Part shown: piece by piece, positions 41,253 through 49,123 of the stretch
How positions within the stretch are numbered: position 1 is the stretch's first letter
Layout of the letters: every line of letters starts with the position of its first letter
Virus record (IMG/VR): IMGVR_UViG_3300045988_038298
Length of the DNA: 51,717 nucleotides
Direction: 5' to 3' (one strand)
Source of the DNA: a virus
The notes under the pieces: model-generated
The model's input: only the letters and a program-made list of their open reading frames with translations
Told to the model about the DNA's origin: nothing
The model's database searches: none
Position numbers and translations under genes: made by a program

Positions 41253-42479
41253 TTAACTCTTTTTCGCACTTTCGTATCTTCTTGCAGCAGCTGCACTCTT
41301 CATAGCTTGCTTTCTGTCCCACCGTGCGACTTTCAATCGTTCTGCATACTCTCTTAGGTCATTCTCTTCACAAAATGCACTGTACCGCTTGTTCTGAAGC
41401 TTCAATGTGTGAGCCTTGCGGTCCAACATATTCTGCAATTCAAACCTTGCCTTATCATCCTTACAGTTATCAACAGCTGTCTGCAAGTTCTGTATCTTCC
41501 GCTTGGTGTCACGGATCCTACGCTCCTGTGCTCTCTGTTTCTTCTGCAATTCCTCAACCTTATGGTTATCAGCAAGAGTTATCTTCTTATCCTCATAAGG
41601 ATTGTTCACTCCGTCACCACTTCCAAATGAGTGCCTACAGTTCCAACCGCACAAGCCTTCACCAGTTCCGAAACCAGTTGTCTTAACGAAGTCCGGGAAT
41701 CTCTTATCCTTTCCACTTCGTGAGTAGAACCGTCCTTGCCACCACAAGTGATTGCCAGGATTCATTCCACCGTTTCCGGTACGTGCTCCTAAGTGAGCAG
41801 ACACAAGAACAGTATCCCAGTTCATTTCTTCCATTCTCTTCATGGAGATGTCGGCAGCTGCTTGTCCCACTCCTGTCCTCACGATCATCATCGTTGCTGA
41901 CTCAATGCTCATTCTGTACCCAGTAGGATAGTTCACTTTGAGTCCTACTTCTGTGATATTGTTAATTACATCTCTGACCGCTTGTGTGTACGATACAGCA
42001 CCAGTAGATACAAGATGGTATGCATTGTCCATCTGATTGATGAAAGTCTTCTGTGCATCCAGTGCTGTGGTCCGTGTGAAGTTGTTCCATTCTCCGGCAG
42101 TAGCAAGGTAATCTCTCTCGAGGATCCTGAGCATGGTTGGAGATTGCATCAGTGCTGTTGGAGTGAGTCCGGCTGCAATATACACAGCATCATCCCATTT
42201 CAACGAAGTGATACCAGCATCAATGAAAGCATCCTTGATTTCTTTCTGCTGTAACTTTGTCTTGTCCGCTATTTCCTTCTGGATATCCTCTAGCAGTTCA
42301 CCAGACTCTTGAAGCACTTGTATCTGCCATCGGTCTGTCTGTGTCAACAGATAGTCCTCACCTCTGCCGAGTCTCTTCATGATTCTCTCGATGATCATGT
42401 CCATAATAGTGCGATGAAGGGACGAAGATATCTCCTCCGCCCCTTCTGTTATTCTTTGTAAGTATTCAGGTGTTAGCAT
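41253..42479 (-). CDS. minor head / head morphogenesis protein (SPP1 gp7 / Mu F-like)
   Basis: 408 aa; GWNCRHSF motif; basic coiled-coil C-terminus. Confidence 0.7.
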   Translation of the reverse strand: MLTPEYLQRITEGAEEISSSLHRTIMDMIIERIMKRLGRGEDYLLTQTDRWQIQVLQESGELLEDIQKEIADKTKLQQKEIKDAFIDAGITSLKWDDAVYIAAGLTPTALMQSPTMLRILERDYLATAGEWNNFTRTTALDAQKTFINQMDNAYHLVSTGAVSYTQAVRDVINNITEVGLKVNYPTGYRMSIESATMMIVRTGVGQAAADISMKRMEEMNWDTVLVSAHLGARTGNGGMNPGNHLWWQGRFYSRSGKDKRFPDFVKTTGFGTGEGLCGWNCRHSFGSGDGVNNPYEDKKITLADNHKVEELQKKQRAQERRIRDTKRKIQNLQTAVDNCKDDKARFELQNMLDRKAHTLKLQNKRYSAFCEENDLREYAERLKVARWDRKQAMKSAAAARRYESAKKS

Positions 42480-42580
42480 TATTCCTCACCGTCTTTGTCA
42501 TTTTTATCATCCTTTGTAATGATTGCAAAAAGCAAAATTGTTACGCAAATGATAAGAATATTCATAGTTGATACCGCCAT
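42479..42580 (-). CDS. small membrane peptide (33 aa)
   Basis: MAVSTMNILIICVTILLFAIITKDDKND...; TAATG overlap with the next gene. Confidence 0.35.
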   Translation of the reverse strand: MAVSTMNILIICVTILLFAIITKDDKNDKDGEE

Positions 42581-42653
42581 ATTGTCACCGCCTTGTTTAC
42601 TCCTCTGTATGACAGGTGTTTGTCAGTTTCTTGTACACATCTTCATACAACTC

Positions 42654-43055
42654 CTACTTTTCGTTCTTTCCAAGAACATTTCTTTCAATGCGATCTTCTA
42701 CTCTACGGTTCATCCACATGAGTGCTTCCTCAATATGAGTAAGTGCACAAGCATTTTCTCTTGACGAAAACGGTCCTGCCTGAAAAGCCTTTAAGCGATC
42801 ACGGACAATTTCCAGTAAATCTGTGTCGATTACACCGTGAAGCGAATCTTTTTCTTTTCGTGGTCCGCACTGCATCTGTAATGTAAGAAGCAGATTCTCC
42901 GGTTCCGCTCTTAACGATGTATCATCATCTTCAAGCGTTGCTGTTCCAGCCTTGTACACACAATATAAGTGATTAGCACCACCTGGACCGATTTCATCTA
43001 CGGCAAATACATCATTTAATTTTTCTCTTTTCTGAATTGTTGATAACTGTTTCAT
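42654..43055 (-). CDS. hypothetical protein (133 aa)
   Basis: Start MKQLSTIQ after RBS ggaaggagg. Confidence 0.5.
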
Positions 43056-43057
43056 TT

Positions 43058-43186
43058 CTAATCCTCCTTCCGTGGCTGTACATTTCCGCAGCCACGGCAA
43101 TATGTTTTTCCATTAACTTCTTTTGTACACATGCAGTTGTGTACTTCATCACATTTCGTTTCATTTACTTCTACATAATCTTTCAT
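43058..43186 (-). CDS. small Cys-rich protein (42 aa)
   Basis: [35 protein letters not shown]... Confidence 0.4.
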
Positions 43187-43192
43187 AATTTT

Positions 43193-43519
43193 CTACTCCT
43201 CATAAATAATATCCAAACCATAAGCAACCGCAGTATCATGCTCGATCTTGCATCCTCTTGCATTCTCCCAGCCCTTGCAGAAGTATGCTGCATGGCACAG
43301 CGACATATTCTCTAACGTCTTAGCAAGATAACATATCGGAATCTGAACTACACCACGTTCTTTCATTGCATCGGCACTGTACCACTCATCTGTGAAAAGA
43401 GTATTTACAACCTCATATCCTTTTTCTTCAAGAACCTTAATTGCTTTCTCTCTTGTTGCTACGATTTCTTCATCAGTCTTTCCAGCCATTGGCTGACTTA
43501 ACATTGCTTTCTTCATCAT
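43193..43519 (-). CDS. DUF4406-like (nucleoside 2-deoxyribosyltransferase-like fold) protein
   Basis: MMKKAMLSQPMAGKTDEEI...; RBS caggagg. Confidence 0.55.
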   Translation of the reverse strand: MMKKAMLSQPMAGKTDEEIVATREKAIKVLEEKGYEVVNTLFTDEWYSADAMKERGVVQIPICYLAKTLENMSLCHAAYFCKGWENARGCKIEHDTAVAYGLDIIYEE

Positions 43520-43818
43520 TAATCCTCCTGTTCGCCAGGACGTTTGCTTATTGGCTCTACTCCAATCAAGCACCCATTTCCGGCATATGCTATAAATTCA
43601 AATTTATTATTCACAACAACCTTTGATGTTTCGCTGAAAGGCTCTATCAGTTGATATGTCTCAAATATTGGCAGATACAGTGCTTTTGGTGTTTGCCAGT
43701 ACAGTTTCCTTTTACCATCAAGTTTCCATCCGGCATCCGTAGTAATTGTCTCAAACCTTAAAATTCCAATAACTTCCTGCCCCGTTGTTTCAATATGTGC
43801 AATTGCTTTTTGTATCAT
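43519..43818 (-). CDS. hypothetical protein (99 aa)
   Basis: ATGA overlap with the upstream gene. Confidence 0.5.
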   Translation of the reverse strand: MIQKAIAHIETTGQEVIGILRFETITTDAGWKLDGKRKLYWQTPKALYLPIFETYQLIEPFSETSKVVVNNKFEFIAYAGNGCLIGVEPISKRPGEQED

Positions 43819-44309
43819 TCCGCAAACAACCAATCTTCAGCAAGCATATCCGCCTGAGAAGCGAGCCATCCCATCTGTACTCCTGATGTTCCGACAAATG
43901 CAATAGCCATGTTTCCGATAGTATCATGTTCACAGTTTACAATTTCTCCATCTGCTGTCTTATAAGAAATACCAGTAGCAAGCTGAATGTACTGCTTCTT
44001 ACCATTCCAACCTTCACGAGCTACTTTACGTCCTTTCTTTAATTGCTTAATAGCTTCACTGAAAGAAAAAGTTGCTTCGCCACCAAGTGCCGGACAGTTC
44101 GTGTCATTCGCAAAAATCCATTCATCGGAGCAAATATTGGTAAATGTGTAATCCACACACTCGGTGCTACGGACATCAATGTCATTACCATCTTTTGTAT
44201 GCATCAGAATTGACTGTGCCGGAATACACCAGAACCAATATCCGGCCCATGATGGAAGTTTTACCTTTGCTCCATGCTTCATTGCTTCAAATGCTTCTTT
44301 AAATGTCAT
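43815..44309 (-). CDS. tandem DUF2829 (Tad2-like) protein
   Basis: Two modules: MTFKEAFEAMKHGAKVKLPSW... and FSFSEAIKQLKKGRKVAREGWNGKKQYI...GWLASQADMLAEDWLF. Confidence 0.65.
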   Translation of the reverse strand: MTFKEAFEAMKHGAKVKLPSWAGYWFWCIPAQSILMHTKDGNDIDVRSTECVDYTFTNICSDEWIFANDTNCPALGGEATFSFSEAIKQLKKGRKVAREGWNGKKQYIQLATGISYKTADGEIVNCEHDTIGNMAIAFVGTSGVQMGWLASQADMLAEDWLFAE

Positions 44310-44324
44310 CGTTCATTTCTCCTT

Positions 44325-44771
44325 TCATTTCATCATCGGAACCATACACGTTTCTTCTATTCTTTCATATTTCCGTTCTAGCTCAAGTTCGTATTTTTTA
44401 ATTTTATAATCGATATTCCCAATTACGTCGTTCTTTTTCTTGTATTCACCAATAACGTGATTTACAAAACAATTGAATTCTTCTCGATTCTGCTCTTCCG
44501 CATTATCGTACAGTTCATCGCCACAAAGCGGTAAGCAATTTTCTCCGGTTACTACGGACAGTAGCAAGATTCCATATGTCTCTTCCGGCAAGTATCTTTC
44601 CTCATGCTTAACAATTATATCTCCCGTCTTAGATACTCCATTTGGTAATGCAGAAAAGCCTACTGCATAACTGCCTGGAATCATTATCCGAAACATCACG
44701 TACTGCGTAATCGAAGTGATTATTGTTCTTTTTTCTTCCTTGTAACGTGGGAATATCGGCATTGTAAACAT
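44325..44771 (-). CDS. hypothetical protein (148 aa)
   Basis: RBS aaaaggag. Confidence 0.5.
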   Translation of the reverse strand: MFTMPIFPRYKEEKRTIITSITQYVMFRIMIPGSYAVGFSALPNGVSKTGDIIVKHEERYLPEETYGILLLSVVTGENCLPLCGDELYDNAEEQNREEFNCFVNHVIGEYKKKNDVIGNIDYKIKKYELELERKYERIEETCMVPMMK

Positions 44772-44795
44772 CTTACAGTCTCCTTTTTTCTGCTT

Positions 44796-45116
44796 CTACA
44801 ACGAACCTACACTCTTAAATGCTTCCTCTATCTTTGGATACTGGATAGCAAACCAGTCCACTATTGTTTCCTCGTGTCCAAACTGTTTGTAATGTTCAAA
44901 GTTCGGTCCTAATCCGCTTTCGTAAAGAAAAGCATGTATGATTTCGTGACGTAACTGTTTCTTCATCAAACAGTCGAAATCACCTAACTTGTTCACGTTA
45001 TCAGTTCTCAATTTGATGATTTTAGATGTATAGTCGCAGTATCCGTCATATTCTGCATCTTTCATCTCTTCACGGATAATTTTATATTCAGTTCCTAATA
45101 CGTTTACTTTTTCCAT
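44796..45116 (-). CDS. small HExxH metallopeptidase-like protein (SprT-like)
   Basis: Start MEKVNVLG after RBS agaggag (the longer track ORF would run into the tRNA-like gene); QLRHEIIHAFLYESG. Confidence 0.55.
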   Translation of the reverse strand: MEKVNVLGTEYKIIREEMKDAEYDGYCDYTSKIIKLRTDNVNKLGDFDCLMKKQLRHEIIHAFLYESGLGPNFEHYKQFGHEETIVDWFAIQYPKIEEAFKSVGSL

Positions 45117-45135
45117 TGCTACTCCTCTCTTAAAA

Positions 45136-45206
45136 ACGAAATAGGAGGGCTCGAACCTCCATCTCCAACTCTCGCGCTGGTGCTTTACCAATTAAGCTAC
45201 ATTTCG
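45136..45206 (-). tRNA. tRNA-like gene with non-canonical anticodon loop (6 nt, or 8 nt if the closing pair opens; no U33)
   Basis: - strand CGAAATG TA GCTT AATTGGTA AAGC A CCAGC GCGAGA GTTGG AGAT GGAGG TTCGAGC CCTCC TATTTCG T. Confidence 0.6.
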
Positions 45207-45922
45207 TGAGCAGGTGGACAGTAATAAAACCACCTCTGCTACGGTTCTTTATACAGTACGAAGAAAATAGTAAACATTGTGACTATCGTGCAAAAATGTG
45301 AATATTAAATCTTTGACGGAACTCCGCAGCTAAAATCCGTCTGTTACATAAATTTCAAACATAATTAGGTCTTCACCTTATTCAATCATGGTAAAAGTCA
45401 TATTCTGCCACTGTGATGATAGGTCTGAGCTTCCGAGAGCGACTCTTGGCTTCCTATCACTGTCTAAGCACACATGGGATTGATACCCACAAATTTCACG
45501 GTTCTTTCAGAATGTTTTGCATAATGTTTTTTCTTATCCTCTTAAAACATTTTTTGAAAATTAAGAACTTGCCATACCGCTACTTTAACAAACCTCTTGT
45601 GTTATACTCCGATTTCTCAGATTCAAGGCAAATCAGCTTATTGAGAATTTCCAGTTAGTCCGTAGCCTCTCACACCACTCACATCACTGGATTATTTCTG
45701 CACCGCAGACGTCTATTAATCACTGACCACAAGGATTCTGCATTTAACTTCTCTATGATGATACACTGCAAGGCATTGTTGATGGTTTCCATCTCCATCA
45801 CCAGAATCACTCCCAGTGGAAAGAATCAGCTTATCCAATATTTCGAATAAGCCTATCTCGTCACCATTGCATCTCGGCATGACTGAAAAATCACTCTTCA
45901 CCGAGGTAATCATATTTGAAAA

Positions 45923-46001
45923 TAGCCGTATAAGGATTCGAACCTCAATCTTTCACTTTGGTAGGGGTAGAATGAACGCTTTACCATTAAGCTATACGGC
46001 T
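45923..46001 (-). tRNA. tRNA-like gene with a 15-nt anticodon loop
   Basis: - strand AGCCGTA TA GCTT AATGGTA AAGC G TTCAT TCTACCCCTACCAAA GTGAA AGAT TGAGG TTCGAAT CCTTA TACGGCT A. Confidence 0.55.
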
Positions 46002-46061
46002 TCCAACTACACTGTAGTAAGGAAAAGTTATGAAAAAGTTTTTTCTCCGAAACTCGGAGAG

Positions 46062-46135
46062 AGCTACCGTTCGGATTCGAACCGAAAACCTGTTGATTCG
46101 TAATCAACTGCTCTATCCATTTGAGCTATGATAGC
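46062..46135 (-). tRNA. tRNA-Arg (anticodon ACG)
   Basis: - strand GCTATCA TA GCTC AAATGGATA GAGC A GTTGA TTACGAA TCAAC AGGTT TTCGG TTCGAAT CCGAA CGGTAGC T; canonical cloverleaf except an A7:C66 mismatch. Confidence 0.85.
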
Positions 46136-46139
46136 TTAA

Positions 46140-46174
46140 GCATCGAGCGTGAACCAAGAAAAACCGCTCGATGC
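46140..46174 (-). other. 10-bp perfect hairpin immediately 5' of tRNA-Arg
   Basis: gcatcgagcg-15 nt-cgctcgatgc. Confidence 0.7.
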
Positions 46175-46297
46175 ATTATTTTAGGTGTTCCCGGGGAGAT
46201 GACAAGAAACCGGGAATAGGCCTGTCCCGGTTATGCTCCGAGTCTGCGTCCTACTAAGGAACAAGCCTTAACCGCCATCTGACGGTTAGTAGCAATA

Positions 46298-46325
46298 TTT
46301 ATAGTGCTGTACATTGCACTGTCAA
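46298..46325 (-). promoter_or_regulatory. sigma70 promoter TTGACA-16-TATAAA upstream of the tRNA cluster
   Basis: - strand ttgacagtgcaatgtacagcactataaa. Confidence 0.6.
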
Positions 46326-46400
46326 GGAATGAAAAACGAATGAACTTTTCGTCCTCAAGTACATAGTACCGTATTCGCTTGCTTTCATTGTCCCCATAAT

Positions 46401-47798
46401 TTACTCATCTTGGAATTTATCAAAGAGAGTTTCGCCTTTGTCACTGGCTTCTTCAATCATTGCTTTCGCTTCTGGCTCTGTCATCCCTTCAAACTTCACG
46501 AAGTACATCCATGCCGGTACTTTTCCCTGTACTACATAATTCCACCAACGAGCACGATCATCTTCAAGGTTGTACACAAGATCTTCAAATTCACATGCCG
46601 TCTGATATCCGGATGCCGTGATCGTTCCATTAGCTGTTCCAGTAGCGTAGAGAATGTATAAGATTCTGTGGATAACTCCATCATGGTTCTTTCCATCAAG
46701 GATTGTTCTGAATGCTTCAATTGTATGTAGCGTTCTTCTATCATCCGATTCAACCTGTGTTGCTGTCTGAATTCCTCTGGTCTCGTCAAACGAGAAGTAA
46801 CCATTTGAGAATCCGCACTTGTATCCGATGATAGACAGATAGAAGTTGATGGCAGCAGTTCTTTCAGCTACCAACATTGTCGGTACGTGTTCTTGAATCG
46901 TGCTGTCTGCATCAATTCCCATTTCAATTCCTCGGACGAATCTAGGAAGTTTGATTCCGTTCTGGCTTGCATACTGAATTGCTGACTGTGACACGAATGT
47001 GATGTGCTGACTATCTTCCTGTTCGTCACCCATCTTGTTTAGCGTGATGTCAAGCCATCTTAACTCTTCAATACATTCAGCGAACACTGGCACTGTAAGA
47101 GGAGATTCCTTATCAATCGCATTCGCATAAGGATTTCTCCAATACACGAACAGCGGATATTCCAATCCTCTTACTTCCACTTCCGGAAGTATGTCTTTCC
47201 ACTCATCTACTTTTTCCAGTGAGATTTCCGAGCCGATACGGTTCTTATCTTCACTCTTGAATGCTTTTGATGAAATCTTATAGACTCTTTCACCATTCAC
47301 ATCCTCAAATCTGTGATATTCTGCTTTTGTGTAGTACCTGTTTCCCTTTTTGATGTATGAGAAGAACACTGCTGCAAGTGCATCACCGTTAGTGTTGGTA
47401 TCTGTGATGATGAAATAATCCGGATCCAGGAACTCAATTCCCTGTCCATCCGTCTTGATCATCATTCCGCAAGTAGCACAGCTTTCTTCCTGTTTCTCCT
47501 GTAAAGTATTCAGCACCTCATCAAATTTCTTCTTGAGTGCATCGTTACCGTCAATCTCTACATTGACATTAAACAGCGTCAAGTTTGCAATCTCACGGCA
47601 AATGACATTAGAGAACCTTGTCGGTCTTATTGTTCCGTCCATGCTCCAAGTAGGAATGCCAGACCTCATGCTCTTATACAAATCTAAGGCAGTCTGCATT
47701 TCAGAAGAGCGACTAACCTCTATTCCAAATATATCTTTTACTTCATTAACTCCAAACATTCTGTTAAATACCGCCTTAATTTTTTGTATTAGTCCCAT
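46401..47798 (-). CDS. portal protein (SPP1 gp6-like)
   Basis: 465 aa directly after TerL with a TAATG overlap. Confidence 0.8.
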   Translation of the reverse strand: MGLIQKIKAVFNRMFGVNEVKDIFGIEVSRSSEMQTALDLYKSMRSGIPTWSMDGTIRPTRFSNVICREIANLTLFNVNVEIDGNDALKKKFDEVLNTLQEKQEESCATCGMMIKTDGQGIEFLDPDYFIITDTNTNGDALAAVFFSYIKKGNRYYTKAEYHRFEDVNGERVYKISSKAFKSEDKNRIGSEISLEKVDEWKDILPEVEVRGLEYPLFVYWRNPYANAIDKESPLTVPVFAECIEELRWLDITLNKMGDEQEDSQHITFVSQSAIQYASQNGIKLPRFVRGIEMGIDADSTIQEHVPTMLVAERTAAINFYLSIIGYKCGFSNGYFSFDETRGIQTATQVESDDRRTLHTIEAFRTILDGKNHDGVIHRILYILYATGTANGTITASGYQTACEFEDLVYNLEDDRARWWNYVVQGKVPAWMYFVKFEGMTEPEAKAMIEEASDKGETLFDKFQDE

Positions 47799-49123
47799 TA
47801 GTATTTCCACCTTAACCGCCTACGCAAGAATGTGTAGACATAATATCTTGTATCGTCCATCGCATGGTCATTCTCTTTGATAACCGTATCATTGTTCTTT
47901 TCCTCATCCCAACAGTACAGACCAAACTCATTGATACAGCTTGTACAATCCTTATATATCTTTAGGAGTCCTTTATTCAGCATCGTTGTGACTACTCGGA
48001 TTCCGTCCAGTACATCATTGTCGGCTTTCTTCACTGTGTACTCTCCGTACTTCTTAATTACCTCAATGAACGATGCAGCAGACGGATCTATGATGATACA
48101 GGATATTTTTCTGTCTCCGATCAGTTCCTTTAGCATCTTGTAATAGGCTTCATCATCTACACGCTTGCCGGCTTCTCTACTGTTGTAATACAATTCTGCT
48201 TCACGCTGTGAGTTCTTCCCATCGAATGCCCACAGACCGGCTGAGAATGGATTGACCGTACCATAGTCGATTGACACGATGTATTCCAGTGCTCCACTCA
48301 TGTGTTCGTCAGAAACATGCTTTTCTTCATCGAACATGGAATAGACAAGTCCTTCAGCCACACACCACAGTCCTAAGATATACCGCTTAAAGAAGACACC
48401 TACATACATGCTCCGGTATCTTTCCTTAATCTGCTCAGACAGTGAAAGATTATCGTCCATAGTGAAATGCAGATAGATGATGCGTTTCTCGTCACACTTA
48501 TCTATCCAATTAACCTTGAACCAATGTCTTGGACTGTTCGGATTGCAGTTAAACCAAAACTTAGAACCAGTAACGGAACATCGTCCTGTTGCCTGGTTCA
48601 CAAATGACTCTGGCATCAGTGCAACCTCATCAAAGAACATACCGGCAAGAGTGATACCCTGAATCAGATCCTGTGACCTTTCATCCTTACCGCCGAAGAT
48701 GTAGAAGAAATTCTGTGTATCTCCTTTGCTTACCACGATTAAGTTGTCTGATCTATGGTCCACAACTTGATATCCTCGGCTTTTCAGCATCAATTTCAAC
48801 CAAAACAATACGTTTCTTCGGAATGATCCGATTGTCTTTCCAGCCATACCGAAGTTCTGTTGGTTGAAACTTTCCATTGCCCACAGCACGTAGGACAGTG
48901 ACATGCACAGTGTCTTACCACTTCGGATTGCTCCGTCCGCTATGATTCCATCTTTGTCCTTTACCGGACTGCTAGGACACCACCATGTCAGCACCTGTTT
49001 CTGCTTTCTTGAGAAAGGCTTGAACTCAAATCCTTGTTTCTTAGCTTTCTCTTTCATGGCAGCAGCGCGTTTCATGATTCCTTTCCGGACAGAAGCTAAT
49101 CTTTCCTCAAAGTTATTCATCAT
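47798..49123 (-). CDS. terL: terminase large subunit
   Basis: Walker A DGAIRSGKT; acidic nuclease-domain residues; overlaps the TerS stop. Confidence 0.9.
   Translation of the reverse strand: MMNNFEERLASVRKGIMKRAAAMKEKAKKQGFEFKPFSRKQKQVLTWWCPSSPVKDKDGIIADGAIRSGKTLCMSLSYVLWAMESFNQQNFGMAGKTIGSFRRNVLFWLKLMLKSRGYQVVDHRSDNLIVVSKGDTQNFFYIFGGKDERSQDLIQGITLAGMFFDEVALMPESFVNQATGRCSVTGSKFWFNCNPNSPRHWFKVNWIDKCDEKRIIYLHFTMDDNLSLSEQIKERYRSMYVGVFFKRYILGLWCVAEGLVYSMFDEEKHVSDEHMSGALEYIVSIDYGTVNPFSAGLWAFDGKNSQREAELYYNSREAGKRVDDEAYYKMLKELIGDRKISCIIIDPSAASFIEVIKKYGEYTVKKADNDVLDGIRVVTTMLNKGLLKIYKDCTSCINEFGLYCWDEEKNNDTVIKENDHAMDDTRYYVYTFLRRRLRWKY

Follow-up and report, generated by a model that had tools for sequence, protein, structure and literature searches.

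A full-length ROOL RNA between two tRNA-like genes of a temperate siphovirus-like phage

A temperate siphovirus-like phage carries, on the minus strand of the 716-nt gap that separates two of its tRNA-like genes, what we take with a probability of roughly 95% to be an intact ROOL RNA (Rfam RF03087). The phage is represented by the window, i.e. the whole stretch of viral DNA that was analysed (51,717 nucleotides). Membership in the family is established for this RNA, as are its full length, its compensated helices, its hypervariable linker and its phage and tRNA context; the RNA belongs to a family already described, of which it is a typical representative, and is nothing categorically new. The ROOL family was described by Weinberg et al. 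(2017; PMC5737381), and its members form protein-free homo-octameric cages of ~28 nm, with kissing loops and A-minor contacts and with a disordered linker inside (PMC12286853). Octamers have been solved for the env-120 ROOL (Kretsch et al., 2025; PMC12286853) and, as relayed in PMC12515178, for the ROOLs of E. faecalis and Firmicutes CAG:227 (Ling et al., 2025).

Results

The gap matches the ROOL family over the full length of the model

An earlier note, made from the letters of the DNA, had proposed that the minus strand of the gap encodes a large structured RNA, with ROOL and GOLLD as candidates, beside tRNA genes of a Firmicutes-type phage, and had recommended covariance-model searches together with a look at conservation and covariation among homologous phages. 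The first of these settled the identity in favor of ROOL: RF03087 matches 45347-45929 on the minus strand with 363.3 bits (E 1.9e-83; the gathering score is 99.1 bits), and the match runs through model positions 1-574 of 574. The copy measures 583 nt, compared to a mean family length of 581 nt. It is identical to the consensus at 160 of the 191 highly conserved (upper-case) positions (84%), and the conserved motifs GUGAAGA, AAUAGACG, UUUGCCUUGAA, GUAUAACACAAG, AGUAGC, UUCUGAA, GUGAAA, CUCAGAC and CAGUGGCAGAAUA can all be found in it. Differences from the model consist of 18 deleted positions, including one small hairpin of the 3' domain, and of 27 inserted nucleotides, mostly within the linker. 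The surroundings are those typical of the family, with phage structural and integrase genes and three same-strand tRNA genes within 800 nt.

The limits of the gap had been given exactly, since the two Rfam tRNAs on its sides flank 45207-45922. Calling these genes tRNA-like was also fair: ARAGORN with default settings missed the upstream one and named the downstream one 'tRNA-???'. The ROOL match occupies the upstream part of the gap (~80% of it) and overlaps the upstream tRNA by 7 nt. The rest is a spacer between the 3' end of ROOL and the next tRNA (Table 1). Its folding is no better than that of shuffled sequences (z -0.77), a consensus scan of its minus strand gave no terminator-like site, and it shows indels among relatives. 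The proposal that the whole gap is a structured RNA therefore holds for 45347-45922 and fails for the last 140 nt (45207-45346).

Table 1. Coordinates of the ROOL cassette and of neighboring features in the window.
Feature	Position	Strand	Remarks
Tad2-like (Thoeris anti-defence 2) gene	43815-44309	minus	PF11195, 92.5 bits
phrog_1233 protein, 106 aa	44796-45116	minus	HExxH motif (LRHEIIHAF); directly downstream of the tRNA-ROOL cassette
tRNA-like gene (downstream)	45136-45206	minus	Rfam tRNA 51.6 bits; ARAGORN 'tRNA-???(ga)'
Spacer, ROOL 3' end to next tRNA	45207-45346	minus	140 nt
Closing helix P1	45921-45907 with 45367-45353	minus	15 bp; ROOL nt 9-23 with 563-577
Hypervariable A/U-rich linker in ROOL	45513-45568	minus	~ROOL nt 362-417; long hairpin-loop region of the Rfam model
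Loop UGAGAG and single-stranded UUCUCA	45642-45672 (45672-45667 and 45647-45642)	minus	6 nt complementary
tRNA-like gene, Gly(ACC) type (upstream)	45923-46001	minus	Rfam tRNA 56.9 bits
tRNA-Arg(ACG), canonical	46061-46135	minus	ARAGORN; Rfam tRNA 57.2 bits (46062-46135)
Leader upstream of tRNA-Arg	46136-46297	minus	162 nt; three strong hairpins
Second promoter-like site	46205-46178	minus	TTGTCA, 16 nt, TAAAAT (consensus scan)

Covariation supports the ROOL fold

Homologues were collected through a pattern search with a core ROOL motif, which retrieved 114 IMG/VR contigs, and through a portal protein search, which gave 80 related loci out of 403 matches; 150 of the retrieved loci contain a blastn match to the window ROOL, at 72-96% identity. 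To the window copy we aligned 101 distinct homologues of full length, taken from contigs of viral metagenomes and 72-95% identical. The resulting alignment of 102 sequences has 647 columns and a mean column identity of 77%, and, coming largely from one human-gut virome dataset and one pattern search, it is a set of related sequences and not a sample of the whole family.

The Rfam consensus structure was projected on the 102 aligned sequences by way of the CM alignment of the window copy and kept as an independent test. In the projected structure 76.9% of cells are paired, compared to 32.7-51.5% when the 3' partners are slid by 1-3 columns; 61 pairs show changes on both sides (15-27 when slid), and there are 1008 compensatory cells (67-311 when slid). 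None of 500 shuffles reached the observed values. An independent prediction with RNAalifold gave 122 pairs, and compensatory changes are seen in 57 of these. Homologous phages show conservation as well as abundant covariation. In the window itself, 118 of the 154 projected pairs are canonical. Six of the 31 projected helices, P1 among them, are off register by 1 nt in the window's CM alignment, and in-register helices were accordingly taken from RNAalifold and from a separate helix scan, not from the CM projection. Most of the out-of-register helices have in-register covarying versions, as is the case for P1 at ROOL nt 16-23/563-570; an in-register covarying helix is also found at ROOL nt 470-477/507-514.

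Three helices had been picked out by eye in the earlier note. CCGAGAG/CTCTTGG at 45433-45449 is indeed a ROOL hairpin, and the other two needed correction. GATAGG is correctly placed at 45418-45423, but its partner CCTATC lies at 45453-45458 and not at 45463-45468, a shift of 10 nt; for the corrected helix, RNAalifold and the separate scan show 47 and 50 compensatory cells. GACGGA/TCCGTC (45315-20/45336-41) is present, but outside the RNA, in the spacer.

The linker (alignment columns ~390-480) is the only block of the alignment that varies freely in both length and sequence. Another element, outside it, bears on assembly. The covarying tertiary contact of the family, annotated as a 'pseudoknot', is an inter-chain kissing loop, B4, in cryo-EM structures (PMC12286853). 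At this position the window has UGAGAG/UUCUCA, the Rfam consensus UGGCA/UGCCA and env-120 GGUA/UACC. The pair in the window thus represents a compensatory difference from both, yet it lies 1 nt off the CM register and is nearly invariant in the alignment. Because of this shifted register, we regard the pair as consistent with an equivalent of B4, rather than as proven to be one.

ROOL lies in an accessory slot of the phage and has been lost repeatedly in close relatives

The minus strand of the window carries the genes for TerS, TerL, portal (46401-47810), minor capsid protein (41253-42479) and tape measure, and an integrase gene is found on the plus strand; the window is a temperate siphovirus-like phage. 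When the whole cassette was compared to the isolate phages of INPHARED (blastn, 'distant' mode), only the tRNA-Arg segment matched, in Rhodococcus phages, and hence the phage has no cultured relative in this collection. No identical portal protein was on record, and a scan of GTDB species genomes with the portal gave no close prophage: the best match (79%) was in an unclassified MAG, and others (33-40%) were mostly in Clostridia MAGs. For this reason we can only infer the host, which is probably a member of the gut Clostridia.

ROOL and the three tRNA genes lie between the portal and the minor-capsid genes (slot 42479-46401). This interval measures 3.9 kb in the window and 0.37-3.3 kb in relatives (L115-L194), a variation in length that identifies it as a hot spot for accessory content. 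It is 368-396 nt long in some of the relatives whose portal is 77% identical, and in others it spans 2.1-3.3 kb with different content. Within the slot, the Tad2-like gene has homologues (37-97% amino acid identity) in 50 of the 114 pattern-derived ROOL loci (L001-L114), mostly 0.2-1.1 kb downstream of ROOL and on the same strand. The gene is often retained in relatives from which ROOL is deleted. As for the phrog_1233 gene, the mechanical ORF call extends into the tRNA; its start is probably the ATG at 45116, after GAGAGGAG.

Loss of ROOL was analyzed in close relatives, defined as the 39 loci with a 91-98% identical portal. A full-length ROOL is present in 24 of them and two are cut by contig ends, while 13 are devoid of all or most of it; since the contigs were assembled from metagenomes and many come from one dataset, artefacts and shared ancestry may contribute to this pattern. 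Eight of the 13 losses are due to a common 620-bp deletion that joins 45788 to 45167 across a 10-nt microhomology, TGGAGATGGA (L118, L122, L123, L127, L134, L137, L143 and L149); what remains of ROOL, nt 1-142, then runs directly into the T-arm of the downstream tRNA. In another three (L139-L141) the flanking tRNA genes have recombined with each other into a hybrid tRNA, and the last two (L138 and L119) have other breakpoints. With 13 of 39 close relatives having lost all or most of it, ROOL appears dispensable for phage viability, and its benefit to the phage may be conditional.

A constant tRNA-P1 junction suggests how the RNA matures

Both tRNA-like genes that flank ROOL are abnormal in the anticodon loop, and tRNA-Arg(ACG) is normal. 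The upstream, Gly-type gene has a 13-nt anticodon loop, produced by a 6-nt tandem duplication, and is detected by ARAGORN only if a 6-nt 'intron' is allowed; it does not encode CCA, and its discriminator, A45923, sits 2 nt before ROOL P1. The downstream gene has a 6-nt anticodon loop and is a tRNA-Ile(TAT) in some relatives. In relatives (L115-L153 and others) the same two genes show either 7-nt loops (Gly-CCC, Ile-TAT) or variants with +5, +6 or +8 nt. The anticodon loop is therefore hypervariable, with the rest of the tRNA retained.

The junction between the upstream tRNA and ROOL is constant. In 84 of 99 evaluable loci the end of the tRNA reaches 7-10 nt into ROOL as delimited by the CM, i.e. 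it lies 1-2 nt before P1, and this holds over 11 nominal tRNA identities (including Gly, Trp, Met, Lys, Asn, Ile, Glu, Asp, Ser and Arg). All of these tRNAs lack an encoded CCA and have a U right after the discriminator. Firmicute RNase Z is said, in work by Pellegrini et al. from 2003 and 2012, to cut CCA-less precursors right after the discriminator and to be stimulated by downstream uridines. A constant junction with CCA-less tRNAs suggests that RNase Z makes the 5' end of ROOL. To our knowledge, the exact tRNA-P1 junction has not been described in detail as a maturation device. The proximity of ROOL to tRNAs is stated qualitatively in the literature (PMC5737381). On the other side, a downstream tRNA directly adjoins ROOL in 30 of the 99 loci, and in 94 the distance is at most 220 nt; the 140 nt that separate the two in the window leave the 3' end of this copy less well defined. 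The mature ROOL core is likely to extend from 45922 to ~45353.

The earlier note had described a sigma70-type promoter site at 46298-46325, and the sequence is as described (TTGACA 46325-46320, 16 nt, TATAAA 46303-46298, minus strand). Our consensus scan does not list it because its -10 hexamer lacks the final T. The site is invariant in 16 near-identical relatives, an observation that is uninformative since the available relatives are ~95% identical there. It lies downstream of the portal stop at 46401 and may be where the tRNA-ROOL transcript begins. Between that stop codon and the promoter-like site, immediately upstream of the latter, the minus strand has a weak hairpin, ACGAA-aaguuca-UUCGU, with UUUUUC behind it (46340-46375); it resembles a terminator but falls short of the scan criteria. 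The leader that follows is predicted to fold strongly (MFE -57.5 kcal/mol, z -3.96, with none of 200 shuffles folding as well) and gave no Rfam match at E<=1. It contains a 10-bp stem, GCAUCGAGCG/CGCUCGAUGC, located 4 nt before tRNA-Arg.

From these elements, we consider it probable that ROOL is co-transcribed with its flanking tRNAs, its 5' end being made by RNase Z and its 3' end by trimming or by RNase P. Transcription of ROOL and the flanking tRNAs would proceed from the promoter-like site behind the portal gene, through read-through of the late operon, or both. Cleavage by RNase Z after A45923 would then release a 5' end 1-2 nt before P1, and the 3' end would arise either by trimming back towards P1 or by RNase P cleavage at the next tRNA.

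Competing readings of the gap

One could suspect that the copy in the window is a decaying, non-functional relic, still recognizable in sequence but no longer able to fold or assemble. The repeated deletion of ROOL in close relatives (through the 620-bp microhomology deletion, tRNA x tRNA recombination and other events) would fit such decay, as would the aberrant anticodon loops of both flanking tRNA-like genes, the 18 deleted model positions and the several helices that are out of register with the model. Against this, the match is full length and far over the threshold, 84% of the conserved positions are retained, and so are the covarying helices, including a perfect 15-bp P1. Moreover, the full-length copies kept by 24 of the 39 close relatives are 90-95% identical, and their substitutions cluster in compensatory pairs and in the linker. 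We consequently hold a relic to be very improbable.

A different class of large RNA (GOLLD, HEARO, OLE or raiA), or an unclassified one, could have been expected from the setting, given that GOLLD also occurs in phages and tRNA islands (PMC5737381, PMC12286853). But GOLLD, HEARO, raiA and OLE gave no match at E<=1 on either strand of 44900-46500, even with permissive filters, and none reached the gathering threshold anywhere in the window. All that Rfam yields at E<=1 in 44900-46500 is ROOL, three tRNAs and a Ysr35 fragment of 18.7 bits, which is a chance match considering that its gathering score is 428. Such a reading is refuted for practical purposes.

The earlier note had seen no credible ORF in the gap, and this was borne out: ORFs of 25-81 aa are present, yet none is conserved among homologues. 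That the gap would code for one or more small proteins, the RNA signal being incidental, is effectively refuted and was rejected, since the two ORFs that could be invoked do exist (65 aa, minus strand, 45716-45913; 81 aa, plus strand, 45413-45658) but are intact in only 52 and ~15 of the 102 homologues respectively, i.e. interrupted in about half and in ~85% of them, while substitutions in helices are compensatory instead of codon-like and the covariance-model match to ROOL is overwhelming.

Discussion

An intact ROOL RNA in a temperate phage of this kind can be found with a standard Rfam scan, and the value of the present one lies in the material that it provides on what ROOL cages do. By homology to the three solved members of the family, we find it likely that eight copies of the window ROOL assemble without protein into a hollow cage of ~28 nm, with the variable linker inside.

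Our best guess at its role is that the cage is an accessory factor which the phage can dispense with, encoded in a variable cargo slot, and that it would act, in the course of infection, on components of host tRNA, translation or defence. A more specific version, in which ROOL is counter-defence or host-takeover cargo and its cage a decoy or sponge for host factors that target tRNAs or for other defence factors, seems to us unlikely, albeit worth stating. Under such a scenario ROOL would travel with the Tad2-like anti-Thoeris gene, flanked by tRNA-like genes with hypervariable anticodon loops; the cage would perhaps still display or enclose tRNA-like parts, and the exact tRNA-P1 junction would be a conserved RNase Z maturation device.

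Several testable leads come out of this work. Within the phage lineage, natural variants that are near-isogenic differ in the presence of ROOL; the constant tRNA-to-P1 junction, over many tRNA identities, predicts how ROOL matures; and the recurring Tad2-like neighborhood in an accessory hot spot is a lead towards ROOL function.

The window copy resembles known ROOLs in its conserved core motifs, its multi-stem architecture, its variable internal linker and its phage context beside tRNA genes. It departs from the Rfam model in the absence of one small hairpin of the 3' domain and in the 1-nt shift of some helices. Its linker corresponds to the disordered linker inside the cage of the solved ROOLs (PMC12286853). 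Identity to env-120 is ~50%, and, as the env-120 sequence that we used has 650 nt and not 659, which offsets numbering by up to 10, the comparison is made at the level of motifs only. At this level, the GC of the symmetric loop (L18) of env-120, G565/C566, has its counterpart in an invariant GUCGC of the window's alignment. GOLLD is similar in being a large RNA of phages and prophages, near tRNA islands, and in assembling into a hollow cage made of RNA alone (a 14-mer nanocage; PMC12286853), but its sequence and secondary structure are unrelated, in line with the lack of a match here at E<=1. The ROOL of Ligilactobacillus salivarius belongs to the same family in another host lineage. It is abundant and non-essential according to Cousin et al. 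(2017), as cited in PMC12286853 and PMC5737381, and this dispensability agrees with the natural deletion variants that we have described here.
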